This document shows positions 5,277 to 35,155 of a DNA stretch of 43,248 nt, in pieces. Both the position numbers and the translations under genes were made by a program. How positions within the stretch are numbered: the stretch's first letter is position 1; the number at the start of each line of letters is the position of its first letter. A model generated the notes under the pieces. That model ran no database searches, was not told where the DNA came from, and saw only the letters and a program-made list of their open reading frames with translations. This DNA comes from a virus (lineage: Duplodnaviria > Caudoviricetes). The stretch is taken from the IMG/VR virus record IMGVR_UViG_3300014167_000005, positions 1 to 43,248 of that record. One strand, given 5' to 3'.

Positions 5277-5462
5277 ATCGAGCTTTGCCACCGTGAACTG
5301 GCGCACGTCGAAGCTGAGTTGCGCGCCTTCAATCCCGATGTACAGGGCCTGTACCTCGCATTATCCGATTGGTGCGCTGAATTACAGATTCTCGAGACAC
5401 TGCCATGGAAGAAACCCTTATTCGGCTTCTTGTCGCCGCAGTCGGGCTCGTTTCAGGAATGA
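5277..5462 (+). pseudogene. Start-less small ORF remnant, in frame directly after the MTase stop
   Basis: IELCHRELAHVEAELRAFNPDVQGLYLALSDWCAELQILE... begins at the codon after TGA 5274-5276 and reads like a helical phage protein. No ATG at its 5' end. Confidence 0.4.
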
Positions 5463-5664
5463 TTGGCACCTTCGGTGGGCTGCAGAATCGCGCACTGCTC
5501 GCGGAGGTGCGTATGGATGTGGGGAGATGGAGAACCGGATCACCACACGGATCAATGGCACCTGCGTGCACGCCGGGGAATGTCATCGACGCGAAGAGAA
5601 CATGCACGCGCGTCTGGAGGTCCTGGTGGAGGAGATCCGGCACATAAATGCCGCTGGGCTGTGA
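5405..5664 (+). pseudogene. Frameshifted small membrane-anchored coiled-coil protein
   Basis: MEETLIRLLVAAVGLVSGMIGTFGGLQNRALLAEVR continues sensibly only in another frame (EMENRITTRINGT...EEIRH) after a shift near the G-run at about 5521. Confidence 0.5.
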
Positions 5665-14612: not shown

Positions 14613-15635
14613 ATGCCGATGATCAATCCATTTACTACGGACGGTTTTTCGCTGGTTGCGCTCACCGATGCAATCAACGTCATCCCGAACATGTACGGCA
14701 AGACCAACGAACTCGGCCTGTTCACGGAAAAGGGAGTCCGCACCCGCACCGTGATCGTGGACGAGAAGGATGGCGTCCTGAACCTGCTGCCCACGCGGCC
14801 GGTCGGCGCCCCAGGTACGGAAGCAATCAAGTCGCGCCGCAAGGTGCGCTCGTTCGTGATCCCGCACATCCCGCACGAGGATGCGGTCCTGCCCGAGGAA
14901 ACGCAAGGCCTGCGCGCCTTCGGCTCGGAAAACGAGCTGGAGGCACTGGAGACGCTCGTCGCTGAGCGTCTCGAGACGGCGCGCCGCAAGCACGACATCA
15001 CGCTCGAGAATCTCCGCATGGGCGCACTGCGCGGCCAAATCCTCGACGCAGATGGCTCGATCATCTACGACCTGTTTCAGGAGTTCGGCCTCACGCAGAA
15101 CGTCGTGAACTTCCAGTTCTCGAGCAACGCGTTCGACGTCAAGACCGCCGTGCTCAATGTGAAGCGCTACATGGAGCTGCACCTGTTGGGCGAGGTGATG
15201 CGCGAGGTGCATTGCCTGTGCGCTCCCGACTGGTTTGACGCCTTCACGCGCCATCCGGACGTGCTCACCGCATTCCAGTTCTTCCAGCACACCGATCTGC
15301 CCAATCAGACACTCGACACCGACAACCGGCGCAACTTCCGGTTCGGGGGCGTGACGTTCGAGGAATATCTCGGCCACGCGAGCGACGGTGACGGCGTCGA
15401 TCACGTCTTCGTGCCCGAGGGTTCGGCCATCTTCTTCCCGCTGGGCACGATGACCACTTTCCGCACCTGGTTCGCTCCCGCGGATTTCAACGAGACCGTC
15501 AACACGGTCGGCTTGCCGATCTACGCCAAGCTGGAACCGCGCAAGTTCAACCGCGGCATGGACCTGCATACGCAGTCCAACCCGCTCCCGATGTGCTTGC
15601 GTCCTGCTTTGCTCACAAAGGCGACGCGGAGCTAA
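14613..15635 (+). CDS. Major capsid protein (lambda gpE family)
   Basis: FSLVALTDAIN.IP, IPHIPHED, T.E.LRMGALRG, FAPADF.ETVNT.G and QSNPLPMC.RP motifs. Confidence 0.96.
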   Translation: MPMINPFTTDGFSLVALTDAINVIPNMYGKTNELGLFTEKGVRTRTVIVDEKDGVLNLLPTRPVGAPGTEAIKSRRKVRSFVIPHIPHEDAVLPEETQGLRAFGSENELEALETLVAERLETARRKHDITLENLRMGALRGQILDADGSIIYDLFQEFGLTQNVVNFQFSSNAFDVKTAVLNVKRYMELHLLGEVMREVHCLCAPDWFDAFTRHPDVLTAFQFFQHTDLPNQTLDTDNRRNFRFGGVTFEEYLGHASDGDGVDHVFVPEGSAIFFPLGTMTTFRTWFAPADFNETVNTVGLPIYAKLEPRKFNRGMDLHTQSNPLPMCLRPALLTKATRS

Positions 15636-15681
15636 ACACGATTACGTAGAACTGCCAGCGGGGTGATCGGCCTTGGTGCTA

Positions 15682-15712
15682 CGGGAGTCGGTGGGCAGGC
15701 TGCCGACTCCCG
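15682..15712. other. GC-rich hairpin at the left edge of the inserted cassette
   Basis: CGGGAGTCGG / CCGACTCCCG 10-bp perfect stem, no U-tract. Confidence 0.45.
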
Positions 15713-15918
15713 GCAAACACCTCTGGCTCGTACCGACCGAAGCACATCGACGGTTCGGACAATTTACGACCAGTTGCCGTTCCTGGCCTCAGGTCGACTA
15801 AACAGGACTCATCGATCCGCAAGACGGTTCGGGATCCACCCCCTGTTGGTGGTCAGAGGGCGATTTATCGCGACAAAATCGATTGTCTTCCGCGATCTCC
15901 ACTGTTGCGCCAGCGAAA

Positions 15919-16032
15919 CCAGCGGCGTGTCTTCGCGCGCGCTTCGGGGAGACCGAAGTTCGGGACCTTCCCTTCCTGTATCAGTTCCTTCACCGCACCG
16001 GCAACCTCCCAGATAGCCAAATTCGCGTCACG
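15919..16032 (-). pseudogene. Aldo/keto reductase fragment
   Basis: RDANLAIWEVAGAVKELIQEGKVPNFGLPEARAKT resembles the AKR signature HRVDP.VPIE.VAGAVKELI.EGKVK.FGLSEA. Only about 38 codons survive. Confidence 0.6.
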
Positions 16033-16097
16033 GACAGGGCGAGCGTGCTCGGTGTGCCGAGTTTTCATTGCTCGAAGATGAGTTCTACTCCGAATGT

Positions 16098-16985
16098 TCA
16101 CAATGCTGCGCGCATAGCCACGATTATGGGATCAAGCTCAACTGCTGTAGCATTGACATGCATCACTCTTGTGGCTCGCTCGCTTAGCTTAGCCGGCCGA
16201 ATTCCGGGGGCTGAACCCCGGATTTCATCTTCAGGCCCATAAGCTAGCTCCTGGGCGCGCTCGATTTTCTCCAATACCACTGTCGAGCTCGGCGCCAAAT
16301 TGGAGTTGAACAATAGTCCTAGGCAATCAAAGAGTTCGCGATGGTAGCGTTCGTCCCTTAGCATCCGGCCGATATCCGAACGCAAGGTGGATCCCGGTGC
16401 TAACCTGCGTCCGGCTGTGATCGAACGTAAGAGAACAAGCATGCGCTCGTAACCAGCTATTGCGGTTGCCTCCAGATCTGCATTGATCCCGCAGAAGTCG
16501 TCAAACTGTGTCACTTCGAGTTCCTCGATGAACTGAGGCACTTCTGCCACGAGCTTCCCGACGGCGATCGCGATTCTAGCTCGCGCCCGCCTCAGACTGA
16601 CTGCACCTAAGTCTGCCACTATCGTTCCTTCGAGCATTCCCATTACGCGCTGAAGCGTGATCCCGATTCGCTCTACAATATTTTGTGGTGGGGCCACTGC
16701 GGTCAATACAGCGTCAAGGTAAGATGCGTGCCCTTTCTCTTGTGCCCAGGCACTCGCCAGAGCAGTTCTAATAACTTCGGTCTCCCTCAGGCCGAGACCT
16801 CTTCGCTTCAAGCCATCGAGATGTATTGCTAGATGAGTTTCGTCGTATGCCTGCCCTACCATAGCTTCACGTCGAAGCGCTAAATGGAGCCATAACAACA
16901 GCTCCTTCTCGGGCTCATTGCTATACTCTTCTCTTAGTGATGCAGCGGCGCGATCCGCAAAGCGGATGATGGAGTGGTCGGACAT
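16098..16985 (-). CDS. Ferritin-like di-iron four-helix-bundle protein
   Basis: Full ligand pattern E (RREA), ExxH (EKGH), E (DLEA), ExxH (ERYH). AAGGGAG RBS before ATG 16985, 10 nt after the CHAT stop. Confidence 0.75.
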   Translation of the reverse strand: MSDHSIIRFADRAAASLREEYSNEPEKELLLWLHLALRREAMVGQAYDETHLAIHLDGLKRRGLGLRETEVIRTALASAWAQEKGHASYLDAVLTAVAPPQNIVERIGITLQRVMGMLEGTIVADLGAVSLRRARARIAIAVGKLVAEVPQFIEELEVTQFDDFCGINADLEATAIAGYERMLVLLRSITAGRRLAPGSTLRSDIGRMLRDERYHRELFDCLGLLFNSNLAPSSTVVLEKIERAQELAYGPEDEIRGSAPGIRPAKLSERATRVMHVNATAVELDPIIVAMRAAL

Positions 16986-16995
16986 GCTTGCTCCC

Positions 16996-17940
16996 TTAGT
17001 CTCCTGCAATCTTCTGGATCACGTTTAGAATCAGCGGATCACTATTCTTTCCGTAGTTTTCTTCGAGCGCTGCTGATAATCTTGTTGCAAATCCTCGGCC
17101 TTCGGCTCCAGTCCAAATCGTCACGCGGATTTCAATGTCTCCATAGAATGAGCACACCTCCGCGAACTTATCGGCTACTGTTCGCACTTCGGAAAACTGG
17201 TCCCGTGGGCGGACTGTGTCGTCGTTATACTGGTAAACAACCGCACTCGTCTGTTCCGGGGCATTCTCGATATGGAGGCGCAGAACATATTCACCATCGA
17301 CTTTCTTAGGTCGAGACCCTCGCATGACAAATTCTGCAAGTAATCTTGGGCTAGCGCGGACGTAGAAATCCTTCGGATCGACATCGCTGCGGCAGTGTAT
17401 CTCCGGAGTGTGGCACTCCGAACCAAGCAGCAATTGAACTTGAGCGACACCCAGATCAAAAGCATCCTGAATACTTCGGTCGAAGGCAAGCGCTTCGTAA
17501 AATGTCGATGCAAAAGTCATGGCAGCGGCAGAGCTTATCTCCGCCGACATTCCGATGACTATTGGTACCGCTTCCCCGATATCTTGTGCTTGCTGTGCAG
17601 AATAACAGGCGTTCAGCACAACACACTTAGTCGTCGCTCTTAATGTGCTGAAAACATCGCGCAGCGCTCCATCCGGAACCACGTGACTATTGCCCGTGCT
17701 ATCAATGAAAAGCAGTTCGCCTCTTTCGTTACCATGTCCACTGAAGTGGACTATCTCAGGTTTGTAACGCAGGAGCGTTGGAATCAGCTGATCCGGCCTG
17801 AGATGTTCTATCTTCTCGCAAGTGAAACCAGCACCCCAGGGTGCCGCAGCGAGGCGATCCTCTATGAGCTTCACTTCCCGCTGAAGCTGCAAAGGTGCTC
17901 GATCATGAGGACTCGCTAGCAGAAAGAGAATGCGTGGCAC
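16996..17940 (-). CDS. CHAT (caspase-like) protease with probable C-terminal pYEATS domain
   Basis: RILFLLASP...LQLQREV, VHFSGHG (His) and VVLNACYS (Cys), IGM...I....A..F...FY. The C-terminus Y.LRLHI...VVYQY..D...EV......F......YGD.EIRV fits a prokaryotic YEATS pattern (less certain). Confidence 0.85.
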   Translation of the reverse strand: MPRILFLLASPHDRAPLQLQREVKLIEDRLAAAPWGAGFTCEKIEHLRPDQLIPTLLRYKPEIVHFSGHGNERGELLFIDSTGNSHVVPDGALRDVFSTLRATTKCVVLNACYSAQQAQDIGEAVPIVIGMSAEISSAAAMTFASTFYEALAFDRSIQDAFDLGVAQVQLLLGSECHTPEIHCRSDVDPKDFYVRASPRLLAEFVMRGSRPKKVDGEYVLRLHIENAPEQTSAVVYQYNDDTVRPRDQFSEVRTVADKFAEVCSFYGDIEIRVTIWTGAEGRGFATRLSAALEENYGKNSDPLILNVIQKIAGD

Positions 17941-17983
17941 AAGTCCTAGCTCCTAATTGTAGATGGGCCGTGAATAGTCTCGC

Positions 17984-18472
17984 TCATGGCACAAATTCTT
18001 CGGTCGGTGACTCGGAGGCGGGTGGTGTTTGCGCCTGCGTTGTAACACGCTTAAACGGAATCGTCAACAACGATACCGCTGGGTCTTTGTCCTCATACTT
18101 TTCAATAAAAAATGTGACCCAGGTGCTCTTAGGCGCGACGTGATGCCGATGTGCCAGGCCTCGAGTGAGGACATCTAGCTGTTCGCTCGCTGTCAGACGG
18201 ATGTCCACAACGCCATTTGAATGAACGTGACCGAGCTCCGTGTCACGGCAATTGAATTGAGTACCGCCGAGCGGATGCTTGGAGACTCTCACGTCGGGCC
18301 AATCCCGAACTGTCTTGATGAGCTCTTTGATACCGCGCGTTACGCTAGGAGCCGTCGCGAGAGTGAGAAGATCTAGGCTAAAGTCGAATGCTTGCGTAAG
18401 CAACCAGACGCGCCTGAACCCTGTAAACCGTCGTGTGACGAAACTAAACACTGTGAATCTTATGGATGGCAT
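17984..18472 (-). CDS. DUF5519 / luciferase-like family protein
   Basis: V.DWP.V....H.LGG.QF.....ELGHVH.NG.VDI......L...G.A..HHV.P.S.WV pattern. GAGGA RBS. Confidence 0.75.
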   Translation of the reverse strand: MPSIRFTVFSFVTRRFTGFRRVWLLTQAFDFSLDLLTLATAPSVTRGIKELIKTVRDWPDVRVSKHPLGGTQFNCRDTELGHVHSNGVVDIRLTASEQLDVLTRGLAHRHHVAPKSTWVTFFIEKYEDKDPAVSLLTIPFKRVTTQAQTPPASESPTEEFVP

Positions 18473-18811
18473 CGCCGTTCCTCACAATCGTACCGCATTG
18501 GTAGCCTATGTCTCGGGCGCTGCTCGTTCAGAGTTATCGTGTGCTCCGAATAGATGGCCCAGCATTTTCACCAAACCGGTGGCCACGCGGCGTACCTAGT
18601 GTCCTGGCTGTTGGGTGGTCCAGAGGGATGGAGGCGGAAACCAAGTCGGTCACAATTGCCGTGTGTTGACGCGGTTTTTAATGGCACCCCAGCTTTGGTG
18701 GCTTGCATTGGACACTGTGAAATCATGCGGCTGGGGAAGCCCGCCTGCGTCTCGCGCTCCATCAAGAGACTGTTAGGCAGGAGCCAATGGGCGCCTAAGC
18801 TACTGAAAGTA

Positions 18812-18856
18812 TGAAGCGGGAGACCGGGCTCGAACTTGCGGCGTCCAGCTTGGGAA
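18812..18856 (-). other. Decayed 3' half of tRNA-Gly(CCC); att-site-like scar
   Basis: Minus strand reads TTCCCAA-GCTGG-ACGCC-GCAAG-TTCGAGC-CCGGT-CTCCCGC-T-TCA: anticodon loop, T-loop and acceptor 3' strand of tRNA-Gly. No 5' half upstream; T-stem mismatched. Confidence 0.7.
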
Positions 18857-19056
18857 CTCGCTTTCAGCGAAGGCCAGCGTACCTGGCGGAAGGCGTTTGG
18901 ATTCCTGTCGATAGCGGCCCTTCGCACTGGCCATCGGAATAGATTCTCGCTGCCGACGCAGTGGTTACGAACCGCTTGGCAGTGCAGTCACCATCCCGCT
19001 TTTGTTTCTCAGGCGGCACCCAAACCTAATCTAATCGAGCCCATCCCTCCGCTTCC

Positions 19057-19085
19057 GCGGGAGCTCAAGATCACTCCCGTTTTTT
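19057..19085 (+). terminator. Rho-independent terminator
   Basis: GCGGGAG-10nt-CTCCCGT followed by TTTTT. Confidence 0.6.
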
Positions 19086-19088
19086 GCA

Positions 19089-19445
19089 ATGAGCTGGCAA
19101 GACCGAGTTGACGACATGCTGGAGACGCTGCTCGATCCGGACACCGGATTCGGCACCTCCTACGTTTACACCTTCAGCGGCGGCAGCACGCTCACTCTGT
19201 CTGGGTATTTCAACGCTGCTTACGAGAATGTCAAGCTCGACGGCTACGGCAGCACGATCACGACGGTCCACCCGGTGCTGGGCGTCCGGCTGGCGGATTT
19301 CGCCGGCACGGCGGGCCCGGTGCAGGATGACACCGTGGCTGTCAACGAAGTGAACTACGCGATCTGGGATGTGCAGCCGGACGAGCAGGGCGACGTGGTC
19401 AACAAGAACGGCGGCGCACTTCTCCTTTTGAAGAAACAACCCTGA
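19089..19445 (+). CDS. Head-tail joining protein (gpFII-like)
   Basis: FG..Y.YT...G....GYF, P.LGVRLADF...P.Q.D.V......Y.I.DVQPD pattern. First gene after the head module. Confidence 0.75.
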   Translation: MSWQDRVDDMLETLLDPDTGFGTSYVYTFSGGSTLTLSGYFNAAYENVKLDGYGSTITTVHPVLGVRLADFAGTAGPVQDDTVAVNEVNYAIWDVQPDEQGDVVNKNGGALLLLKKQP

Positions 19446-20011
19446 TGCCTACAGATCATCCCCGGTCTCTGATTCGGGACTACGTTGCAGCGGGCCTGGT
19501 GAACGCGTCAACGCTCGCTGGCGCCCAGGTTTTTGCAAACCGGATTGAACCGGTAGGCGATAACTGGTCGCCTGCGATCTTCGTCCACACGCCCAGCGAG
19601 TCAGTCGATCAGAAGGATTCGTGGGTATCAAATGATCCTGACTGCCCGGGCCGGCTGACTCGGGAGCTGGTGCTCGCGGTGGCCGGCATCATGGAGATGC
19701 CCCGCTCTGGCGTTCCGATCGACAGGCAGCTCGATCAGCTCGCATACCAGATCGAAGCATTCATGGATTCCGATCCGACACTGGGCGGCTTGGCTTCGAA
19801 GTCCCTGCTGCAGCGCACCTCAGTCACTCTCAAGCCCGGTGGAGTCGATGCCGTCGCGATGGTGCAACTCGTTTACACGGTCACGTACTACACAGAGACC
19901 ATCACAGATCCCCGTGTGGAGGGCGTCCCGCCCACGAAGGTCTTTGTCGGCATTGCGCCGGACATCGGCGCTGCCAATCAGGCGGATTACATCGAAGTGG
20001 TGGGCAGCTAA
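19445..20011 (+). CDS. Tail terminator/completion protein (lambda gpU-like)
   Basis: HPR..IR..V...L, PAI.V.T..E, LD.LA..IE.....DPTLGGLA and Y.VTY pattern. Confidence 0.75.
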   Translation: MPTDHPRSLIRDYVAAGLVNASTLAGAQVFANRIEPVGDNWSPAIFVHTPSESVDQKDSWVSNDPDCPGRLTRELVLAVAGIMEMPRSGVPIDRQLDQLAYQIEAFMDSDPTLGGLASKSLLQRTSVTLKPGGVDAVAMVQLVYTVTYYTETITDPRVEGVPPTKVFVGIAPDIGAANQADYIEVVGS

Positions 20012-20014
20012 GGC

Positions 20015-20635
20015 GTGCTGGACCTTCTGATTCAACGCGGCGCCAGGACCGGCGATCTGCAGGATCCGGACACCGCGCGGCTCAACCATCAGGTGAGCAA
20101 TCTGATTCATCGCGGCCTGGTCATCTCTGTGGACCTCGAAAACGCTCTGGCGACCGTGCAAGTGGGAGAGGTGCAAACCGCGCCTCTTCCCTGGCTGACG
20201 GCGCGCGCCGGCGGCGATGTGACCTGGTGGGCGCCGGAGGCCGGTGAGCATGTGGCGATCCTGTGCCCCGGTGGAAGCCTGTCGCAGGGCGTGATTATCG
20301 GCTCGCTCTACTCCGGCTCGAAGCCGGCGCCATCTCAAAGCGCGGATCAGAACGTCACGAAATACTCCGACGGGACGACGATCACTTATGACCGCGCGGC
20401 GCACGCCTTCACTGTTCAGGCGGTGGGCGCGGTGACGATCAATATTCAGGGCAACGCCACGGTCACCGCGCAGGCGGTCACGATGAATGTGCAGGGCGGC
20501 ATGACGCTTGCCGGCGCACTGACTCTCAATGGCGATCTAACGTTGAACGGGAAGGTGGCCGGCACGCTGAAGGTGGCCGGCGATGTGCGCGCCACCGGCT
20601 CGGTAGCGCAGTCGGTTCCGCCGTCGCAATTATGA
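20015..20635 (+). CDS. Baseplate assembly/spike protein V
   Basis: LPWLTARAG....WWAP..GE.V..L.PGG....G.I OB-fold, YSDGT.I.YD, beta-helix repeats. Confidence 0.9.
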   Translation: MLDLLIQRGARTGDLQDPDTARLNHQVSNLIHRGLVISVDLENALATVQVGEVQTAPLPWLTARAGGDVTWWAPEAGEHVAILCPGGSLSQGVIIGSLYSGSKPAPSQSADQNVTKYSDGTTITYDRAAHAFTVQAVGAVTINIQGNATVTAQAVTMNVQGGMTLAGALTLNGDLTLNGKVAGTLKVAGDVRATGSVAQSVPPSQL

Positions 20636-20973
20636 TCGGCATGAATGTCGACACCGGCGCAGAGCTGGCCGGCCTCAGCCATCTCGAGCAGAGCATCCGC
20701 GACATCCTCCTGACGCCGAAGCTCAGCCGGGTGATGTTGCGCGACTACGGCTCGAATCTCTTTTCGCTGGTTGACCAGCCGCTTAACGAAAGCACCAAGA
20801 TGGCGATCACGGCGGCCACTGTAGGCGCGCTTTCCACCTGGGAGCCGCGGATTCAGGTGCAGAGCGTAACGGTCGCGGCGGACCCGGCGAACGGTTCCAT
20901 CTCCATCAATCTGACTGCGCTGTATTTGCCGGATGGGCAAGTCATCAACATTGAGGGCCTGAAACTTTCATGA
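20632..20973 (+). CDS. Baseplate wedge protein W (gpW/gp25 family)
   Basis: GM...TG..L....HL.QSI.DIL.TP..SRVM.RDYGS, WEPRI. Confidence 0.93.
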   Translation: MIGMNVDTGAELAGLSHLEQSIRDILLTPKLSRVMLRDYGSNLFSLVDQPLNESTKMAITAATVGALSTWEPRIQVQSVTVAADPANGSISINLTALYLPDGQVINIEGLKLS

Positions 20974-21851
20974 GCCGCTTCAACCTGATCGACCTTTCGA
21001 CGCTCACTCCGCCGGACGTGGTGGAGACGATCGACTTCGAGTCGATCAAGCTCGACATTCTGCAGGACCTGGTGACGCGCGATCCCTCGTTTTCCGCGCT
21101 GCTCGAGTCGGATCCGGCAGTGAAGCTGGTGGAGGCCTTCGCCTACCGGGAGATGCTCTTGCGCCAGCGGATCAACGACGCCGCGAACGCCAACATGCTG
21201 GCCACCGCGCTGGGCTCGGACCTGGACAATCTGGCGGCGCTGTTCGGCGTCCAGCGCATGACGTTCACGGATGCGCAGGGCAACGTGACGACAGAGACGG
21301 ACGACCGGCTGCGCCTGCGCGCGCAACTCGCACCGGATGCTTTCTCATGCGCCGGCCCGGGGAACGCCTACATCTACTTTGCGTTCTCGGCCGACCTGCG
21401 CGTGGCGGACGCCAGTGCGTTCTCGCCGGCGCCAGGTAATGTCGTTGTGACCATCTACAGCACCGATAACGGCGGCGCTGCTTCGCCGGACCTGCTGGCC
21501 GTGGTGTCTGCCGCGCTCAACGCGGATGACGTCCGGCCGCTGACCGATGTGGTGGAGGTGCAGGCGGCACAGAGCCAACATTATTTAATAGCGGCCACCG
21601 TGACGCTCTACCCCGGACCGGACGCGAGTGCCGTCACAACGGCGATCACCAACGCGCTCACGGCCTACACGCAGAACGTACAACGGCTGGGCTACGGCAT
21701 CACGCTCGCCGGCATGTACGGCGCTCTCGACCAGGCCGGTGTCCAAAACGCGACAATTCAGGCGCCGGTGAGCGACGTTGCTGGTGATCCGTACAAGATC
21801 AACGTCTGTGACGCGGTGACCGTCACCATTGCGCCAGCGAGGACGGAATGA
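20970..21851 (+). CDS. Baseplate J protein
   Basis: IDLS.L..PDVVE.IDFE, LESDP..KL, RQRINDAA, ETDDRLR.R, AGP..AY, VRPLTD.V. Confidence 0.95.
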   Translation: MSRFNLIDLSTLTPPDVVETIDFESIKLDILQDLVTRDPSFSALLESDPAVKLVEAFAYREMLLRQRINDAANANMLATALGSDLDNLAALFGVQRMTFTDAQGNVTTETDDRLRLRAQLAPDAFSCAGPGNAYIYFAFSADLRVADASAFSPAPGNVVVTIYSTDNGGAASPDLLAVVSAALNADDVRPLTDVVEVQAAQSQHYLIAATVTLYPGPDASAVTTAITNALTAYTQNVQRLGYGITLAGMYGALDQAGVQNATIQAPVSDVAGDPYKINVCDAVTVTIAPARTE

Positions 21852-23068
21852 GCACGACACCCTCGCTGCCCCCGTCCGTGTTGCCACCCAATGCGACGCC
21901 GGTCGAGAGGAACATTGAGAGCGCGGGATGGCGCCTCGGCGACGACGGTCCGGTGGGCATCCGCGCACTGTGGAATCCGCAGACAATCCCCGCGGCGTTG
22001 TTGCCCTGGCTCGCCTGGGCGTTGGGCGTCGATGCGTGGGACGCCGCGTGGGATGAGGCGAAGAAGCGCGAAGTAGTTGGCTCTGCCCTCGCGGATCACC
22101 GGGTCGACGGGACACTCGCTGGTGTTCGACGGGTGACCGGGCTTTATGGTGGCACGGTGACGAACGTCGTCCGGCCACCCTGCCAGCTTTACTATGGCGC
22201 GGCGCAAACGCAGGCAGAGAAGGACGCGGCGCTGGCTGTCTATCCGCAACTGATCCTGCGCACCGACTGCGATCCGTTCGCGGTTCCGGATGGTGCGACG
22301 TTCGCCGGCCGGTTCATGGGCCACTGTTATGGCGTCGACCTGGGCGCGGCGGAACGAGCACTGCCGCAGGCGTTCATTGAGGATCAGGGATCGACCACTC
22401 AATGCGCAGTTTCGGAGTGGACTGCTGCCGGTGTGGCCTACTTGCAGATCCAAGTGCCAATCCGTAATCCGCACGGAACCTACGCTGGCGGCTTTCCGAG
22501 ATTCGGCACTGCTGTAGATGCGCCGGTTTACCTGCTGCAACTCATGCAAAGTTACGCGGGGCCCGGGCTGGGCGTCAATTACAAGCTCGTCGACGCCGGC
22601 GTGGATCCGACGCAGGTCTTTCCCGACTGGATTTCGGAGACTTACCCGGCGCAAAGCATCTTTCCGGGGCTCGGCTTCGCGGGCGCGGGGCTGTACTGGC
22701 GTGGATCGGAGGCGGCCAGCCACGTGCACGCCCGGCTGTATCTCTTCGATTCCACCCGGACGCTCGAGGCCGGTGGCAAGAGCTTCTTTGTCGATGCCGT
22801 GCACACCGGCGTCCAACCGCACACGGCGCAGATCCGGGCCTGGTTCCCGTTGCAGCGCTCGCCATGGGCGCCCACCTACTTTGGCCAGGGGTTTTTTGTT
22901 GCGGAGGATTACGAGTGGCTGACGCGCTATTGCGACAGCCTGGCGCGCTGTGCCTCGCTCCGGGACACATTGCTCGTCGATACCCGCAACTATGCGGTCG
23001 TAACTTGCGGACGCCAGGCGCAGTGTGGTCGGGCGACGATGTGCGGCGCGATGCTGCCGCGTGAGTGA
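21848..23068 (+). CDS. Tail protein I (P2 gpI-like) with long C-terminal extension
   Basis: LPPNATP.ER, LWNP...P..LLPWLAWA..VD.WD..W....KR, H...GT..GV, then about 290 extra residues. Confidence 0.85.
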   Translation: MSTTPSLPPSVLPPNATPVERNIESAGWRLGDDGPVGIRALWNPQTIPAALLPWLAWALGVDAWDAAWDEAKKREVVGSALADHRVDGTLAGVRRVTGLYGGTVTNVVRPPCQLYYGAAQTQAEKDAALAVYPQLILRTDCDPFAVPDGATFAGRFMGHCYGVDLGAAERALPQAFIEDQGSTTQCAVSEWTAAGVAYLQIQVPIRNPHGTYAGGFPRFGTAVDAPVYLLQLMQSYAGPGLGVNYKLVDAGVDPTQVFPDWISETYPAQSIFPGLGFAGAGLYWRGSEAASHVHARLYLFDSTRTLEAGGKSFFVDAVHTGVQPHTAQIRAWFPLQRSPWAPTYFGQGFFVAEDYEWLTRYCDSLARCASLRDTLLVDTRNYAVVTCGRQAQCGRATMCGAMLPRE

Positions 23069-23083
23069 GTAAAGAGAGATCCG

Positions 23084-25288
23084 ATGGAACAACAATTCAA
23101 CTTTCAGCAAAACATGGACTTCCAGGTGCAGGACTTCATTGACTTGCAGCAGTGGACCTCGGACGGCATCGACCACATTGCGCTGGACGCGATCGCCCCG
23201 GCTGGCATGTACTTCACCGGGCTCGCCGCCACCCAAAATGGCCAGACCCAGGTGAATGTGGCTCCCGGCCGTCTTTACGCGCAGGGCACCAATCCTTCGG
23301 GCAGCGCCGGCTTGTGGGTGTATCAGTACCCCACGGCGACCACCAATTCCCTGCAGGCCATGCTGCCGCTGAACAATCCGAAGCTCATCGCGCTCATCGC
23401 CTGGGGCTCGGTCGATGCGAATGCCGATGTGGAGCCGCGCTCGTTTCTGGTGAATGCACAGACCGGTCTGGCGCAGACGCAGTCGACCGCTCTGCAGACC
23501 GTCCGCACTTGCAATCTGCAGTTTGTCGCCGGCGTCGAGTCGCCGGTGCCGCAGTTGCCGACAATTCCGGCGAATGCCCTGCTCATCGCGACCATCACGA
23601 TTTCTCCGACCGGCATCACCGGGGTTGCCATGCAGTCGGGCAACATCCTGCCCAACCTGGCGAGCCACGAATCCCGCGTTACGACGCTCGAAAGTACGAG
23701 CACACAGGTGCAACTCAAGACCTCGTCGCTCGCCACCGATCTGAGCGCGCTCGCGGCGAAGACCAACGGCATGGCCTCGTTGAGTTTGGTGACGCAGATG
23801 GCGGCTGATCTCGCGCGCACGAAGGCGAAACTCAACCTGCCGTCTTCCTTTTCCTCGTACGAATCCAGTTTCTTCGGCGATCTGACGAAGAGTAATCCGG
23901 CTGCGACCGGCTATACCGCCAAAATCAGCAACGGGCTGGTCTTCCCCGATGCTGCGAGCGGCACATTCCCGTTCGATCTGTTCAACCCGATCGACTCGAG
24001 CGTGGTCAAGAGCGCGCGTGGCCTGATTCTGCCGGCATACACGAGCGTCCCGCGCATTCAGACCACGGGCTACTCCGGCGATCTCTCGCTGTCGCAGTAT
24101 CAGGTGCAGAGCCAGACCCTGGTCCAGCAGCAGGAAACGGTCTGGCAGTATCGGTACGGCTGGTGCTGGAATTATTACCCCGGCTGGTATCAAGGGCAGT
24201 TCTGGAATTATTACAACCAGTACTACGCCTACAACCTGCAGGGCGGCTACTGGTACGCCTACACCCAGACGAGCTACGCGCTGCAAACCTCCACGACCTC
24301 GATCAACGGTGCCATGGTGGCGCAGACCTTCCTGGTTTCCAACGCCATGTGGCTCACGGCCTTGGATCTGTTCCTGACCTCCGTGGCATCGACCGGCGAT
24401 ATCACCGTTGCGGTGACGAAGACCCTGGCGGGTCAACCCGACCTGACGAATACGATCGCCACGGTGAACGTCCCCGTCGGGACACTGAACACTTATCCGA
24501 AGGCGACGAACATCCCGATCCCGGCCGTGCTGCTTGAAGCCGGCACGCGCTACGCGCTGGTGCTGATCACACAGGGCAACCACCGCGTGGCGGTGGTGAG
24601 CGGGAACAACTACACCAACGGCACGATTTTCTATTCGACCGATGGCGCATATTTCACCGGCGATCTGACCAAGGATCTGATGTTCACGCTGTACGGCGCG
24701 CAGTTCACCAACGCTCTGTCCCAGGTCCAACTGCAGCCCGTCTCGCTGGCCGGCGGCCTCACGGATCTCGCCATCAACGTTTCTCAGGTCACGCCGCAGG
24801 GTACCAGCCTGCAGATTCAGTTCCAGGTCAACGGCCAGTGGTACAACCTGGGCGACACCACCGCGCCTCTGAACGCTGCTCCACAACTCGTGCCGCTGCG
24901 GGCCGTCTTCCTGGGCACCTCGGACCTGGCGCCGGCCGTGCTCGCGACCACGACCGGCGTTGTGGTTTCCCGGCCGGCACTGGCGTTCAATCACACGAGC
25001 GAGTTGCGGACGATCTCGCCCGCGAGTACCAACATTCAGGTTCAGGTGGTCGTCGTCGGTTACAACGCGGCCGTGCACACGCTCACTTGCACGCTCGCGA
25101 ACGGCGGGAACACGATCACGCCTTCGGTGACCAGCTCCGCACTGGAGCCCGATGGCGTGGGCTTGCGGTTCACGTTTAAGTTCACCCCGGGCACGGGAAT
25201 TACCACATACAGCATCAACACCCAGGGCACGCGGCAATCCACCGCCGCGCCATTCCAGGTCGTTGAGCGCACCGACGTTGCGCAGTAA
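23084..25288 (+). CDS. Large baseplate/tail-fibre-proximal structural protein
   Basis: 734 aa after gpI. Beta-rich with central coiled coil, AQTF...LT.LDLF, LEAGTRYALVL and DLMF.LY motifs seen in phage virion proteins. Confidence 0.7.
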   Translation: MEQQFNFQQNMDFQVQDFIDLQQWTSDGIDHIALDAIAPAGMYFTGLAATQNGQTQVNVAPGRLYAQGTNPSGSAGLWVYQYPTATTNSLQAMLPLNNPKLIALIAWGSVDANADVEPRSFLVNAQTGLAQTQSTALQTVRTCNLQFVAGVESPVPQLPTIPANALLIATITISPTGITGVAMQSGNILPNLASHESRVTTLESTSTQVQLKTSSLATDLSALAAKTNGMASLSLVTQMAADLARTKAKLNLPSSFSSYESSFFGDLTKSNPAATGYTAKISNGLVFPDAASGTFPFDLFNPIDSSVVKSARGLILPAYTSVPRIQTTGYSGDLSLSQYQVQSQTLVQQQETVWQYRYGWCWNYYPGWYQGQFWNYYNQYYAYNLQGGYWYAYTQTSYALQTSTTSINGAMVAQTFLVSNAMWLTALDLFLTSVASTGDITVAVTKTLAGQPDLTNTIATVNVPVGTLNTYPKATNIPIPAVLLEAGTRYALVLITQGNHRVAVVSGNNYTNGTIFYSTDGAYFTGDLTKDLMFTLYGAQFTNALSQVQLQPVSLAGGLTDLAINVSQVTPQGTSLQIQFQVNGQWYNLGDTTAPLNAAPQLVPLRAVFLGTSDLAPAVLATTTGVVVSRPALAFNHTSELRTISPASTNIQVQVVVVGYNAAVHTLTCTLANGGNTITPSVTSSALEPDGVGLRFTFKFTPGTGITTYSINTQGTRQSTAAPFQVVERTDVAQ

Positions 25289-25300
25289 CAGGAGGTCTTC

Positions 25301-25492
25301 ATGCCAACAACTACTGAACAGAAATCCAGCGAGGCGCCCGCTATTGATCCTGGCGCCCAGTATGTCGTGCATCTCGCGGAGACCGTGGAGGTGCTGGGCG
25401 AGCGCCTGTATCCGGGCCGGGAGTATCGCCTCCGCGGGGATGTACTGATTCCGATCCAGGCGAGCGTCCAGGATGCCACTCAGCTTCGATAA
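25301..25492 (+). CDS. Small hypothetical tail-associated protein
   Basis: AGGAGG RBS, 63 aa, in the operon. Confidence 0.65.
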   Translation: MPTTTEQKSSEAPAIDPGAQYVVHLAETVEVLGERLYPGREYRLRGDVLIPIQASVQDATQLR

Positions 25493-26207
25493 ATACCGCT
25501 TCACGGACGGTCAGACGCCACTGAGCGCGGGGACTTTCAACCCGCGCTTCCAGGATTTGGACACGCGCATTGCGGCGCTGGAAGCGCTCAATATCGCCTG
25601 GCAAGCGGCCGTGCAGGAGTTGACCGACTTCGGTCTTGCCCGGCTCGACTCCGTGCTGAGCCCAACCTTCGACACGCTTAATCAGGATGTGGCGAATGCT
25701 GCCACCAGCGTCACTGCCATCACCCAGTCGCAGGCGGACGCGTTGGCCGCCGTAGCCGCGTGGCAGGCCAGCACGCTGGCCTTCATCACTGCATGGGAGA
25801 CATCGCTCCAGTCAACGGCGCTGGCTGTCTTAAACACGACGGCGATCGTGGCAGGCAACGGCCAGGGTGGTTTTGCGCCCGTGACCGTCGGCGCAGGGCT
25901 CAGCTACGCGAACGGCACGCTGAGCGCGCCCACGCTTGCCTGGAACACGCGCACGGTTTCGTTCACCGCGGCGCTCCAAAACGGCTACTACGTGACCGTG
26001 CCTGGAGTCGTCGCAACACTGCCGGCAGGAACGGCCGATGGCGACCAGGTGCTCTTCATCAGCGGGCTCAGCGGGACGAGCACGTTCACCATCGTGCCGG
26101 CGTCGGGCCAGACCATCATGGGCGATACTTCGCTCGTCGTTGATCGCGCGAATGCCGGATTGGCACTGATCTATTTCGCCGCCACGGCTGACTGGAGACT
26201 CTTCTGA
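25473..26207 (+). CDS. Tail fibre/adaptor protein
   Basis: N-terminal coiled coil. C-terminal TA....Y.V....ATLP.....GD.V.F......TI......I.G...L.V.......LIY.....W module like T4 gp9/gp10/gp34 repeats. Confidence 0.65.
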   Translation: MPLSFDKYRFTDGQTPLSAGTFNPRFQDLDTRIAALEALNIAWQAAVQELTDFGLARLDSVLSPTFDTLNQDVANAATSVTAITQSQADALAAVAAWQASTLAFITAWETSLQSTALAVLNTTAIVAGNGQGGFAPVTVGAGLSYANGTLSAPTLAWNTRTVSFTAALQNGYYVTVPGVVATLPAGTADGDQVLFISGLSGTSTFTIVPASGQTIMGDTSLVVDRANAGLALIYFAATADWRLF

Positions 26208-27397
26208 TGCAAAGTTTGACTGCACTGATGGGCGGCGGTGGCCGCTTCTCGCACTTCGTTCAACTCACGGGCTCCGGAGTGTGGACTGTTCCGCCCGGCG
26301 TGCAGATGGTCCGCGCGCTCATGGCCGCTGGCGGATCGGGTGGGACCAGCGTATGCGTAGGTGGTGCGAATCCCTGTCAGTCCGGAGGTTCCAGCGCCTA
26401 TGCTGAGGTGGATTACCCGGTTCTGGGCCAAGCCTCGATTCCGTTCAGCGTCGGGGCCGGTGGCGCAGGAGTCCAGACCAGCGTCTATGCCGGCACGCTT
26501 TCTTTGTGTTCCTCTGTCGTTAACCCATACCTCAGTAGCTACAACGACTGGATGCTGACGGTCCCGAGCGCACTGATCTCCGGTCTACCTGCTGGCACGC
26601 CGGTGATGCTCAAGACGACAGCGGGAGCAGGTAGTGGCACAGCAACGATGACCTTTGCGAGTACGCCGGGATTTGGAATTGCCGTTGGCTGGACCGTGTA
26701 CGTCGAGGGTGACAGTGCCACACGCGTGATTCAATCCATTGCTGGCGGTGTGGTGACGTTAACAACAAACATAGCTGGAACGGTAAGTGCAGGTGTCAAT
26801 CGGATTTTCTTTGCACCTCCGACTACATTGGCTTCTGCACAACAATTCGGCATCTATATCGCATCGCTGCCTTATGTTGCTATCGGTTCTGCCAGCTACT
26901 TGTCGAACTACAATGGCGCTTTCATTGCATCGAGCACGACGCTTCTGGTGTTTAGGGTGGCGAACACTCAGGCCACGCCGGCAAACGGTGCGGCACTGGT
27001 TCTTTCGACAGTACCGGTGTTTCCCGTTAGTGGAAGCAACACAATCTTTGGGAATCTGATCGTGTATGGTGGAACGCCGGCGGCCAGCAGCAAGGCGCTG
27101 GGCACGCCGAACGGATCGTTCACTCTGCCGCAGCTCTCAAGTAGTTCATACGAAGCGCTGTTGGGAGGATTTGTTTTCATCCCCGGTGTGGATGGAACAT
27201 ACTCGGGTGCTGGCGCTGCGTGCGGTGTGCCGAACGGCTCGCTGGTGGGTGCTGGTGCCGGTGGCGTGAGCGCTAACCCGGTGGCAGGCAATGGTGGGCC
27301 CGGTGCCGGGGGCGGGGCTCCTGCTGCCACGAACGTCTCTGCCCCCGCGCCATGCGGCGGCAATGGCGGCAGTGGCCTGCTGTATCTCCTGTATTAG
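26207..27397 (+). CDS. Glycine-rich tail fibre / receptor-binding protein
   Basis: GSGVWTVPPGV....AAGGSGG...SVGAGG N-part and GAGGG...GGNGGSG C-part of a glycine-rich fibre domain, enclosing a lower-GC central insert. Confidence 0.7.
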   Translation: MQSLTALMGGGGRFSHFVQLTGSGVWTVPPGVQMVRALMAAGGSGGTSVCVGGANPCQSGGSSAYAEVDYPVLGQASIPFSVGAGGAGVQTSVYAGTLSLCSSVVNPYLSSYNDWMLTVPSALISGLPAGTPVMLKTTAGAGSGTATMTFASTPGFGIAVGWTVYVEGDSATRVIQSIAGGVVTLTTNIAGTVSAGVNRIFFAPPTTLASAQQFGIYIASLPYVAIGSASYLSNYNGAFIASSTTLLVFRVANTQATPANGAALVLSTVPVFPVSGSNTIFGNLIVYGGTPAASSKALGTPNGSFTLPQLSSSSYEALLGGFVFIPGVDGTYSGAGAACGVPNGSLVGAGAGGVSANPVAGNGGPGAGGGAPAATNVSAPAPCGGNGGSGLLYLLY

Positions 27398-27406
27398 GAA
27401 GGGCGC

Positions 27407-27778
27407 ATGCAATACATTAAACAAGGCACAAACACCTTTCAGGTAATTAATGGCGAGCAAGTGTTGATCGATGCCAACGACAACTACGATGTCAACGCCG
27501 ATGGCAGCATTGTTCCGAAACAGCATGTGTGGCTATCGAAGCTCCAGTTCCGCAACCTGTTCAGCATGGATGAACTGGTCGCGCTCGACAACTTCGCCTC
27601 AAGCACCACGCTGACCTCTGATCAGAAAGCGTATCTTACGACGCTCATGAAGAACGTCGATGCTGCCGAGACGATCGACCTCTGCTATCCGATGACGCAG
27701 CAGGGGCTGGCCTACATCGAATCCGCGGGTTTAATCGCCGCAGGGCGAGCAGCCCAGATCCTCGCCACTACGGTCTAA
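27407..27778 (+). CDS. Tail fibre-associated/assembly protein
   Basis: LSKLQFRNLFS..E...IDL......GL......GLI...RA.QIL pattern common after fibre genes. Confidence 0.6.
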   Translation: MQYIKQGTNTFQVINGEQVLIDANDNYDVNADGSIVPKQHVWLSKLQFRNLFSMDELVALDNFASSTTLTSDQKAYLTTLMKNVDAAETIDLCYPMTQQGLAYIESAGLIAAGRAAQILATTV

Positions 27779-27847
27779 CGCTTCGTCCAGACAGTTTCTT
27801 TCGGCCGGCCCGAACCGGCGTAAACCACTCAAAGGAGAAAATCACTT

Positions 27848-29470
27848 ATGTCAGGAAACCAGTTCCTGCACGGTGCCGAAGTTCTGCAAATCGACACCGG
27901 CTCGCGGCCGATCACGACTCCGTCCTCGGCGGTGATTGGCCTGATCGGCTCCGCCCCGTTCGGGCCGCTCAACACCCCGACACTCATCAGCGGCAGTCAG
28001 TCGCTCGCAACCCAGACGTTCGGTCCTGCTGGCTACGGCTTCACGATCCCGGATGCGCTGGCTGCGATCTTCGCGCAGTGCGGCGCCCAGGTGGTCGTCG
28101 TCAACGTGGCGGACCCGAACGACAACACGCTCCAGACCAACGTTGCTGCCGCTCCACTGGCGTTCAGCTCGCTGGGCCAGATTCAGCTTCCGCATGTCGC
28201 GGCGTCGGCAGTTGCGCTTACCGGGCCGGTGACCGCACCCATGGTGTTTCAGGGCACCGCTTTGCCTTTGCCTGCGGGCGCCAGCGCGCCGGTCGTAAAG
28301 TCGGCCGACGGCACGAAGACCTACGCGCTGACCACGGACTACACCTTCGCGGGCGGCACGATCACACAGGTTGGCGGGGGCGGCTTGATTGCGAACCAGG
28401 CGGTGCTGGTGACTTACACCATCGCCGGCATCACCTCCGGTACCGACTACACGGTCGCGGCTCAGGCCGGCCTCATCACCCTTATCTCCGGCGGGAAGAT
28501 CGCAGCCAATGCCACGCTCAATGTGGCATACAGCTACCTCGACCCGACCAAGGTGACGCAGGCGGTGGCGGCCGGCGGCACGAACGCCACCACGGGCGCC
28601 TACACGGGCGCACAGGCGTTGCTTGCCGCGGCGAGCGTTGCGGGCGTCACCCCGCGCATTCTTTGCGCGCCGGGTTTTACCGGCGTCAAGACAGGCACAA
28701 CCGCCAACGCGGTCATCGCTGCGCTGGATGCAGTGGCGGGCAAACTGCGCGCAATCCAAGTGGCGGACGGGCCCAGCGCTGCCAACGGCCCGCTCACCAG
28801 CGACGCCTCGGCGATCAGCTTCCGCAATGACTGGGGTTCGAAGCGCATCTTCCTGGTCGACCCGGGCGTGATCCGTTTGAACCCGGTCACGGACGTCAAC
28901 GACACGCAGCCGGCTTCTGCTTACGTCGCCGGCGTGATCGCGAACCAGGACGCCACCAACGGCTTCTGGTTCTCGCCGTCGAACCAAGTGCTCAACGGCG
29001 TGCTCGGCACCAATCGCCCTGTGGACTTCGCCATGGGGGATTACTCCAGCCGCGCCAATCTGCTCAACCAGAACGATATTTCGACAGTAATTTACCAGGA
29101 TGGCTACCGGCTGTGGGGCAACCGCACCTGCTCGGCCGATCCGCAGTGGACTTTCGTGTCGGTCGTTCGCACCGCCGACATGATCAACGACGCGATTCTC
29201 GAGAGCTTCCTCTGGGCTGTGGACCGCAACATCACCAAGACCTTCCTCTCGGACGTCGTCGATGGCGTCAACTCCTACCTGCGCAGCCTGCAGGCCGAGG
29301 GCGCCATCATCGACGGCAAAGCCTGGGCCGATCCGGAGCTGAACACCCCGGCGACGATCGCCAACGGCCAGATCTACATCGACTTCGATTTCGCCCCGCC
29401 TTACCCGGCTGAGCACATCACCTTCCAGTCGATGATCAACGACAACTACCTCACGGAGGTGACCGCGTAA
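27848..29470 (+). CDS. Tail sheath protein (P2 FI-like)
   Basis: FLHG.EV....G.RPI, PRIL.APG, GFW.SPSN, GYRLWGNRT, F.SV.RT.D, P.PAEHITF. Confidence 0.96.
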   Translation: MSGNQFLHGAEVLQIDTGSRPITTPSSAVIGLIGSAPFGPLNTPTLISGSQSLATQTFGPAGYGFTIPDALAAIFAQCGAQVVVVNVADPNDNTLQTNVAAAPLAFSSLGQIQLPHVAASAVALTGPVTAPMVFQGTALPLPAGASAPVVKSADGTKTYALTTDYTFAGGTITQVGGGGLIANQAVLVTYTIAGITSGTDYTVAAQAGLITLISGGKIAANATLNVAYSYLDPTKVTQAVAAGGTNATTGAYTGAQALLAAASVAGVTPRILCAPGFTGVKTGTTANAVIAALDAVAGKLRAIQVADGPSAANGPLTSDASAISFRNDWGSKRIFLVDPGVIRLNPVTDVNDTQPASAYVAGVIANQDATNGFWFSPSNQVLNGVLGTNRPVDFAMGDYSSRANLLNQNDISTVIYQDGYRLWGNRTCSADPQWTFVSVVRTADMINDAILESFLWAVDRNITKTFLSDVVDGVNSYLRSLQAEGAIIDGKAWADPELNTPATIANGQIYIDFDFAPPYPAEHITFQSMINDNYLTEVTA

Positions 29471-29976
29471 TGCCTTATCCGCAACGTCTGCAGAACTTTT
29501 CGGTCTTTGCCGACGGCAAAGGCTATGTGGGCCTCGCGCCCGAGCTCAATTTGCCGAAGGTGACTTCGAAGACGGAGGAGTACCGCGCCGGAGGCATGGA
29601 CACGCCGGTCGAGGTCATTACCGGCACGGAGAAGCTCGAGTGCTCCTTCACGCTGGCCGAATACAACGCCGCCGTGATGGCGCTGTGGGGCATCACCACG
29701 AGCGCGGAAACCCAGTTCAGCTTCCGCGGCGCCGTGCAACGCCAGGGCGAGGACGCGCAGGCGATCGTCGCTACGGTCGGGGGCCGGATCAAAGAGCTGG
29801 ATCCGGGCACTTGGAAGGCGGGCGATCAGGCCACGCTCAAGGCGTCCATCGCGGTGACCTATTACCGGCTTACCGTCAACGGCACGGATGTGATCGAGAT
29901 CGACGTCGTCAACATGAAACGCATCATCAAGGGCGTCGATCAACTAGCCAGCCAGCGCACGGCGCTGGGCATCTAA
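29470..29976 (+). CDS. Major tail tube protein (P2 FII-like)
   Basis: L.NF..F.DG..Y.G, LPK...KTEEYRAGGM, EID.VNM...I.GVD.LA..R.ALG. Confidence 0.96.
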   Translation: MPYPQRLQNFSVFADGKGYVGLAPELNLPKVTSKTEEYRAGGMDTPVEVITGTEKLECSFTLAEYNAAVMALWGITTSAETQFSFRGAVQRQGEDAQAIVATVGGRIKELDPGTWKAGDQATLKASIAVTYYRLTVNGTDVIEIDVVNMKRIIKGVDQLASQRTALGI

Positions 29977-30051
29977 GCCATCTCCGCAGCCACGGCAGGC
30001 CCGGTCCGGGCGGGATTCCCGGAGCAGACTACTTTCGCTTTCCTTGGAGAT

Positions 30052-30081
30052 GGGGCGGCGTTGCGAGCCGCCCCGCTTTTT
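30052..30081 (+). terminator. Rho-independent terminator after the tube gene
   Basis: GGGGCGGC-7nt-GCCGCCCC-GCTTTTT. Confidence 0.65.
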
Positions 30082-30092
30082 AGCAGGATTCC

Positions 30093-34054: not shown

Positions 34055-34056
34055 CA

Positions 34057-35145: not shown

Positions 35146-35155
35146 GGAAAACATC

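Follow-up and report, generated by a model that had tools for sequence, protein, structure and literature searches.

Relation to described protease-effector systems

Small modules in which an immune protease is paired with an effector have been described by Evans et al. (10.1101/2025.11.14.688446), whose main text covers ten families (MBL, alpha/beta-hydrolase, Pepco, EACC1, bGSDM, Csx30, CalpT, PCaspase, CATASP and MPE) and protease-effector pairs whose proteases have been exchanged between the trypsin, caspase and subtilisin types. Here we compare with them a three-gene cassette found in virus record IMGVR_UViG_3300014167_000005, the whole 43,248 nucleotides of which are referred to as the window. 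The cassette lies on the minus strand between the major capsid and head-tail attachment genes, and encodes in order of transcription a PF17648 protein, a CHAT protease carrying a pYEATS-like domain, and a ferritin-like di-iron carboxylate protein. It is undescribed as far as searched and plausibly defensive, and would be of the protease-effector kind should cleavage be confirmed. A defence-related role of some sort is probable. More tentatively, and with somewhat less than even confidence, we propose that the CHAT-pYEATS protein is a sensor-protease gating a membrane-acting di-iron oxidase, the predicted effector.

The cassette resembles the modules of Evans et al. in being built around a small two-gene unit, a sensor-fused protease and its neighbour, and in that the same effector family stands beside several protease classes and sensors. 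It differs in that none of the ten families is ferritin-like (the words ferritin, iron, YEATS and CHAT have 0 occurrences in the main text of that report), in its looser linkage, and in that the predicted output is an oxidation and not nuclease, hydrolase or pore activity. The effectors known to be activated by proteases are nucleases, hydrolases, pores and sigma-factor regulators; if the proposal is true, a di-iron redox enzyme would bring a new chemistry to bacterial programmed death.

The closest solved structure for the window protease domain (8TL0) comes from the SAVED-CHAT/PCaspase cascade of the Haliangium type III-B CRISPR/CBASS (cyclic oligonucleotide-based antiphage signalling system) hybrid (10.1101/2023.06.23.546230), and CHAT-SAVED genes of CBASS loci have related di-iron genes at their side. 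Unlike that cascade, as given in the available text, the window protease has pYEATS in place of SAVED, and neither a cyclase nor a PCaspase, sigma factor or kinase accompanies it; in the CBASS loci of the di-iron homologues SAVED is C-terminal and PCaspase gave no match. Type IV Thoeris (TIR plus caspase; 10.1101/2024.10.24.620036) shares a caspase-clan output, and di-iron homologues occur in TIR/caspase loci (L025, L029, L010), whereas the window is without TIR and the Thoeris caspase is promiscuous according to the available text. The C-terminal domain is one that the window protease has in common with TIR-pYEATS and other pYEATS fusions. Membership in CBASS, Thoeris, gasdermin or Craspase systems was rejected, there being no cyclase, TIR, gasdermin or Cas7-11 partner and the flanks being virion genes.

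The original prediction knew of no named system with this combination, and we found none matching in PADLOC or in the literature searched, which was mostly without subscription papers and preprint supplements. That literature yielded no description of the CHAT-pYEATS/di-iron/PF17648 combination or of CHAT-pYEATS as a family, no paper with DUF5519 (which we take to be another name for PF17648), and none joining ferritin-like, CBASS, CHAT and SAVED; the available passages of PMC7159879 include none on the YEATS domain or ferritin. Against the cassette PADLOC returned only domain-level "chat" and "SAVED_CHAT" matches for the protease, and none for the PF17648 and di-iron proteins.

The CHAT-pYEATS protease

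The protease gene (16996..17940, minus strand, GTG start) specifies a 314-residue protein with a CHAT domain at about residues 1–190 [PF12770, E 6.2e-8, 32.9 bits against a cut-off of 24] and a pYEATS-like domain at about 195–314. The CHAT domain is related to SAVED-CHAT 8TL0 both by sequence [E 3.8e-11] and by Foldseek [E 1e-12, root-mean-square deviation (rmsd) 2.7]. A profile made from the window protein and its counterpart in locus L062 (see below) retrieved 24 further full-length proteins of 311–338 residues among the 120 matches listed. The catalytic residues H69 and C112, originally noted as kept, are together with E22 invariant in 26/26 aligned CHAT-pYEATS proteins.

The pYEATS-like nature of the C-terminal domain, first proposed from the sequence alone, has been strengthened. 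While the window protein gives no row for PF20305 at E up to 0.1, four of 25 full-length homologues pass the Pfam cut-off for this family. Atlas structure searches place the domain next to a pYEATS cluster (template modelling (TM) scores 0.73/0.78, predicted models), and Foldseek on the predicted model finds the Yaf9 YEATS domain [5wyi, E 3.2e-4]; judged from these models it is a YEATS-like beta-sandwich. In Atlas structures it is also fused to TIR (as an unnamed domain, TM 0.90, in an Acidobacteriota cluster) and to metallophosphoesterase. YEATS domains bind acylated lysines. In the available text of a recent preprint pYEATS is named as a ligand-binding domain of conflict systems (10.64898/2026.10.19.760177). 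The window cassette would offer a compact two-gene assay for what such domains sense.

Pattern scans of viral contigs gave no relative of the CHAT-pYEATS, PF17648 or di-iron proteins, and 13 viral CHAT loci had neither a pYEATS nor a di-iron gene. Plasmid CHAT matches were mostly partial, one of 51 covering 80%.

The di-iron protein

The last gene (16098..16985, minus strand) starts with ATG behind GGAG and encodes a protein of 295 residues that has no match in Pfam, NCBIfam, PHROG or PADLOC, no match in annotated phages or plasmids and no sequence relative in PDB; word-based homologue searches returned only the window's own proteins. A full HMMER scan gave 134 relatives at 50% clustering, the window protein included, of which 70 are of 250–420 residues, 37 longer and 27 shorter. 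Of 49 relatives scanned, 11 carry DUF362, and these are all long. The family is rare and patchy (6/401 and 14/401 genomes, long members included). Further genome samples gave new loci in at least 3/301, at least 3/7, at least 2/401 (mostly long members) and at least 1/221 (CHAT domain only), all lower bounds because only 5–10 candidates per genome were scored.

Residues E40, E83, H86, E172, E212 and H215, the predicted set of six di-iron ligands recognized at the outset, are invariant in 43/43 aligned homologues, and each stands on a long helix of the model; E28, Y47, T174 and Y179 are likewise invariant. The possibility that the cassette consists of artefactual open reading frames (ORFs) was rejected, homologues existing and the ligand residues being conserved. 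The model, with a predicted local distance difference test (pLDDT) score of 92, consists of helices throughout; two additional ones (103–126 and 130–146) lie between the ligand pairs, the tail is ordered, and no 19-residue segment exceeds a mean hydropathy of 1.2.

Structural comparison with VIA-align gave mini-bacterioferritin [Z 13.5, 135 residues aligned], a Bacillus di-iron protein [Z 13.4] and alternative oxidase 3vv9 [Z 13.2, rmsd 3.8, 13% identity], the last with the longest alignment, 191 residues. COQ7 7ssp scored Z 11.5, the ferritin-like rows spanned Z 13.5–10.3, and Dps and nigerythrin were also among the nearest folds. The likeness to alternative oxidase and Coq7 includes the six-ligand E/ExxH/E/ExxH set, the extra helices between the ligand pairs, and the motif E-x6-Y, which occurs twice and which we presume to carry the same meaning. 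The differences are the low identity, the lack of any alternative oxidase or Coq7 family hidden Markov model (HMM) match in Pfam or NCBIfam, the extra C-terminal helices, and the equal Z of soluble ferritin-like proteins. Membership in the ferritin-like di-iron carboxylate superfamily is settled, the ligands themselves being predictions from sequence and model; a membrane-attached oxidase resembling alternative oxidase and Coq7 is a lead suggested by the model.

The same comparisons raise the alternative that the protein is protective or regulatory, either a rubrerythrin- or ferritin-like buffer of peroxide or iron, or a redox-sensitive inhibitor of the protease, benefiting the phage-carrying host. 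Mini-bacterioferritin, Dps and nigerythrin among the nearest folds, the rubrerythrin-like clusters returned as Atlas feature matches (0.80–0.83, leads only) and the existence of stand-alone copies (L002, L004/L007) would agree with this. We nevertheless think it improbable. With its two extra helices the protein aligns over the greatest length with alternative oxidase, which also fills the top Foldseek rows (all with E > 0.1), and so rare and patchy a family is unlike a housekeeping stress enzyme. The Atlas structure search with this protein (a weak model) gave only rows at TM < 0.4.

The tail of about 70 residues after ERYH had been suggested as an inhibitory segment. As a disordered inhibitory peptide the whole tail was rejected: it is a predicted ordered, helical part found in all members, with or without a protease, so that only an internal loop looks protease-specific. 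This loop, Y249–D285, has 35–36 residues in both of the protease-partnered proteins (window and L062), which share a 14-residue insertion, and 21 residues in five of five proteins from, or near-identical to those of, protease-less loci. Three of 12 proteins of undetermined context also have 31–36 residues here.

Linkage of di-iron and protease genes

In locus L062 of an unrelated bacterial genome (G062, sampled within the phylum to which an Acidobacteriota metagenome-assembled genome belongs; locus guanine plus cytosine (GC) content 0.45) the stop codon of a CHAT-pYEATS gene overlaps the start of a di-iron gene (TAATG), making the two a translationally coupled pair. The CHAT-pYEATS proteins of L062 and the window are 37% identical over 315 columns and the di-iron proteins 39%, and the L062 di-iron protein is the best match of the window's among the 134. 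A window-type query found no PF17648 match in this genome.

More distant relatives were collected from species genomes by a motif scan. Of its 28 loci, 16 proved to be true homologues and 12 were chance matches; genome searches added L064 and L073. The resulting Myxococcota/deltaproteobacterial set numbers 17 loci (L010–L012, L014, L016, L020, L022, L025, L026, L029, L032–L035, L037, L064 and L073; L024 was left out). A protease gene lies no more than three genes from the di-iron gene in 13 of the 17, and is of the CHAT(-SAVED), caspase, subtilase or EAD1-trypsin class. CHAT(-SAVED) occurs in eight loci, divergent from the di-iron gene, with type III or II CBASS genes next where the locus extends far enough. 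Caspases occur in L029, in L025 with ThsB-type TIRs, and in L010 as a caspase-TIR in one operon with the di-iron, MpaB and TIR genes; L014 has a subtilase and L033 an EAD1-trypsin. On the quick tree the protease-associated loci and the window's clade fall in about six separate places. The adjacency recurs across lineages (L062 and 13/17 loci), while five protease queries found nothing in eight long outgroup loci or 12 chance-match loci, and a protease Pfam domain of this kind was absent from all 27 ORFs examined next to outgroup genes. The wider family is enriched beside immune proteases of four classes.

Comparison of L012 (type III CBASS) with L032 (type II) showed 83% identity for CHAT, 89% for the di-iron protein and 90% for MpaB as against 45% for SAVED, and cyclases that do not align; this implies that the protease travels with the di-iron block and that the sensor is swapped. 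Between L012 and L034 SAVED is kept (87%) despite a different cyclase. The CBASS effectors concerned (L012:3675–5807 and L032:3717–5807) have CHAT at the N-terminus and SAVED at the C-terminus, and no PCaspase was seen in their loci. In L026 an MBL-fold protein (1070–2467, LmuA/Avs1a-like by PADLOC) just past the LuxR gene belongs to a separate module of protease-MBL type near CBASS.

Proposed mode of action and alternatives

In the mechanism that we favour the cassette would be expressed from the antisense strand in the lysogen. A ligand from an infecting phage would bind the pYEATS domain and activate the CHAT protease, which might then cut the extended, Arg-containing loop 250–284 of the di-iron protein and so loosen its last helices. 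The freed enzyme, built like alternative oxidase or Coq7, would use oxygen on membrane quinol or isoprenoid lipid, and this oxidation would arrest or kill the cell. PF17648 may be an optional helper, a relic of an earlier operon of PF17648 and di-iron gene that probably received the CHAT-pYEATS-di-iron unit by recombination. Direct cleavage of the di-iron protein by the protease is a possibility that we rate slightly short of the proposal as a whole. A broader claim, which we consider rather unlikely, makes the di-iron proteins a new class of death effector under protease control: once cleaved, they would oxidize membrane quinols or isoprenoid lipids and so provide bacteria with iron-dependent oxidative cell death. 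On this view different immune sensors (pYEATS, CBASS SAVED, TIR-caspase, subtilase and EAD1-trypsin) have taken up the family on at least six occasions, and it would be the missing substrate of Myxococcota CBASS CHAT-SAVED. The di-iron family offers a concrete candidate for the substrate of the CBASS CHAT-SAVED proteases in cultured myxobacteria (Archangium, Pyxidicoccus, Hyalangium).

A number of observations weigh against protease gating. The window's clade (24 rows, Shimodaira-Hasegawa-like approximate likelihood ratio test support 96 on the quick tree, which was used only to count separate clades) was read at eight other distinct loci, L004/L007 and L008/L009 each being counted once and several contigs being under 2.5 kb. 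Only one of these eight, L062, has a protease. PF17648 is the commoner partner, being intact in three, a remnant in two and lacking together with the protease in two. Elsewhere a tandem CHAT-pYEATS pair (genome G089, L099:51–7490) has no di-iron gene upstream, nor on the other side before the contig ends 946 nt on, and four of the 17 Myxococcota/deltaproteobacterial loci (L011, L016, L022 and L037) are without a protease, so that an obligate linkage fails. Eight of the 13 protease-positive loci form one clade of close relatives with the di-iron gene transcribed divergently, for which reason the co-inheritance with CHAT may be plain linkage. The control protease queries were drawn from positive loci. 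The L014 subtilase adjoins a metallophosphoesterase, another possible outlet for the protease. Thoeris-IV-like caspases, according to the available text of the report, are promiscuous and need no partner or dedicated substrate (10.1101/2024.10.24.620036).

At the level of the proteins, the tail of the di-iron protein is predicted to be ordered (pLDDT 83–97), and alternative oxidase, bacterioferritins and Dps are tied in fold score (within 1 Z). At a position past the strand following the Cys, which we take to be part of the S1, or Arg-binding, pocket, 23 of 26 CHAT-pYEATS proteins have Asp but the window's has Ser (Ser137). No integrase was found among the 33 window ORFs scanned, and the temperate lifestyle is for this reason only assumed. 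Overall the interpretation given in the original prediction is partly supported: neither of its refuting conditions that computation could address came true, as CHAT and di-iron genes do occur together elsewhere (L062) and the C-terminal domain is YEATS-like.

The steadiest partners in the 17 Myxococcota/deltaproteobacterial loci, moreover, are not proteases: an MpaB/Lcp-type oxygenase is found in 17/17 and LuxR in 16/17 (by HMMs partly built from such loci), Pfam confirming MpaB in all six loci scanned. MpaB/Lcp proteins are presumably of the heme oxygenase type. The di-iron protein may form an independent oxidative unit with an oxygenase partner (PF17648 in the window's clade, MpaB/Lcp plus LuxR in Myxococcota), producing or destroying a toxin or alarm signal derived from lipid. 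It would then gather in defence loci and share expression with proteases, while the protease acts on other host proteins. This is the strongest rival to the protease-gated reading, and we hold it to be on the unlikely side. It accounts well for the constancy of MpaB and LuxR, for PF17648 being intact or a remnant in five of the eight other clade loci, for PF17648 and MpaB never occurring together in the loci fetched, and for L016, where the next gene is a PD-Lambda-1 homologue in place of a protease. Long outgroup members adjoin squalene/phytoene synthase, flavin oxidoreductase and hydrolase genes, and these genomic neighbours hint at isoprenoid substrates. It accounts less well for the coupled CHAT-di-iron pair of L062, in whose genome PF17648 was unmatched with the query used, for the decay of PF17648 where the di-iron start is kept (L006, L008), and for the loop insertion, which in the few examples available goes together with the protease.

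Even under this rival, an undescribed module of di-iron protein, oxygenase and LuxR would mark Myxococcota defence loci. It is mostly found near CBASS, TIR/caspase, subtilase, EAD1-trypsin or PD-Lambda-1, and no description of it was found; of the proteins tested (di-iron, PF17648, MpaB and LuxR) none is represented by a model in PADLOC 2023. The long DUF362-fused members (L063, L066–L072), which lie near squalene/phytoene synthase, ArsA-type ATPase, flavin oxidoreductase and hydrolase genes, are possibly unrecognised isoprenoid-modifying enzymes. The tandem CHAT-pYEATS genes of L099 sit behind radical-SAM-like, Ser/Thr kinase-TPR-like and 451-aa unknown genes (labels assigned by eye).

The PF17648 gene and the origin of the cassette

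The first gene of the cassette (17984..18472, minus strand) encodes a 162-residue protein with a conserved His cluster that matches PF17648 "Luciferase" [E 8.5e-13] and has no sequence relative in PDB; the label presumably reflects fungal luciferase chemistry. It had been regarded as a possible passenger. PF17648 is indeed dispensable, being absent in L062 and decayed in L006 and L008, where only its 3' end is left and the di-iron start is kept; yet it is the commonest partner in the window's clade, which makes the passenger view half correct. As an essential component it was rejected, since L062's genome has no match and L006/L008 only a remnant. An intact PF17648 gene stands directly upstream of the di-iron gene, without a protease, in L003, L005 and L024; L002 and L004 have neither PF17648 nor protease. 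In L005 PF17648 is preceded, at a distance of 5 nt and in the same orientation, by an 811-aa ORF (3075–5510) that has no Pfam or PADLOC match and is possibly an alternative sensor for the PF17648-di-iron operon.

In L003, L005 and L006 the PF17648 stop and the di-iron start overlap as ATGA. The same overlap in the window starts a 13-codon remnant ORF (17946..17987, minus strand), likely the scar of a di-iron gene that formerly followed PF17648. The PF17648 proteins of the window and L003 are 68% identical whereas the di-iron proteins are 44% identical; in three other PF17648/di-iron pairs both genes diverge alike (49/52, 55/50 and 53/42%). Because of this disparity and the ATGA remnant, the window cassette looks like a mosaic on sequence grounds.

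Mosaic origin also bears on the notion that the cassette is loosely assembled cargo without a joint function in the phage, its protease weakened or shifting in specificity. The unequal identities to L003, the remnant ORF, Ser137 and the fact that other slot cargo is not all defence-like (see below) are in keeping with this. All three frames are, however, intact and preceded by Shine-Dalgarno (SD)-like sites, the catalytic dyad, E22 and all ligands are kept, a coupled pair persists at 37–39% identity in L062, and RNA contigs cover the cassette genes. We regard such a loose assembly as very improbable.

The capsid/head-tail slot

A lambda-type portal, an S49 protease, capsid E and contractile tail genes were identified in the window. 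The cassette occupies a variable slot (approximately 15760..18970, defined by blastn and GC content) between the genes for major capsid protein E [14613..15635, plus strand, PF03864, E 1e-106] and the head-tail attachment protein [19089..19445, plus strand, PF05354, E 1e-15]. Similarity to close phage relatives ends near 15,712–15,778 and restarts near 18,967–19,072. The layout originally described was borne out: three minus-strand ORFs (18472–17984, 17940–16996 and 16985–16098) separated by gaps of 43 and 10 nt, with the SD-like sequences GAGGA, AGGAG and GGAG 5–9 nt upstream of their starts. Slot GC is 0.54 against 0.62 for the window; the cassette genes have GC of 0.51–0.54 and third-position GC of 0.50–0.55, against 0.62–0.65 and 0.79–0.84 for four structural genes.

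Forty-eight viral loci with a related capsid gene were available, and the 16 that also have the head-tail gene served for comparison of the gap. In two close relatives (L109 and L111) this is 64–66 nt, the slot being nearly empty; in the other 14 it is 946–2739 nt of differing DNA, none of it similar to the window's insert. The cassette can hence be called an insertion in the capsid locus, as proposed, since the slot of relatives is near-empty or filled by other DNA. Eleven distinct inserts of relatives were read and include Phd-ParE, Xre-like/RES, DUF4145, DUF2188 and a beta-helix protein, several having no Pfam match. The two toxin-antitoxin pairs, Phd-ParE and Xre/RES, were counted for the defence reading. 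In this phage group the junction serves as a hotspot for cargo, partly defence-like (window 15,636–19,088; L100–L116 and L121).

By locus, the cargo comprises Phd-ParE with three unknown ORFs (L102), Xre-like/RES (L112), DUF4145 (L105), DUF2188 with a 205-aa unknown protein (L104 and L106), a 363-aa unknown protein (L114), an HExxH peptidase-like ORF (L110) and a beta-helix protein (L113). Promoter and terminator scans were at chance level (1 vs 1.8 and 4 vs 3.6), and repeats at the locus were short and chance-like.

Coverage in RNA libraries and other features of the window

Seven sequencing runs contain the stretch, three of them RNA. The cassette is present in RNA libraries: contigs from three wetland studies cover pieces of it, one run touching all three genes; such contigs carry no strand or level information. 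Contigs of RNA run X2 cover 15068–16040, 16077–16889 and 17355–18440 with no differing letters, and X4 and X7 cover pieces. Over 25,001–43,248 coverage was 2, 4 and 0 of 30 bins for X2, X4 and X7, and 30/30 for DNA run X3; RNA coverage of 18,517–25,000 was similarly sparse. Uncovered parts were not used as evidence because the runs had been picked for holding the cassette and the RNA contigs end at differing places. The X2 contigs at 15,068–16,040 run beyond the di-iron stop into the capsid gene, and antisense read-through is possible.

Elsewhere in the window two ParB-DNA methyltransferase genes (phrog_498) stand in tandem at 2560–5276. Two large ORFs, of 734 aa (23084–25288) and 967 aa (37593–40496), have no Pfam match; the latter has a partial match to a tail-fibre PHROG.

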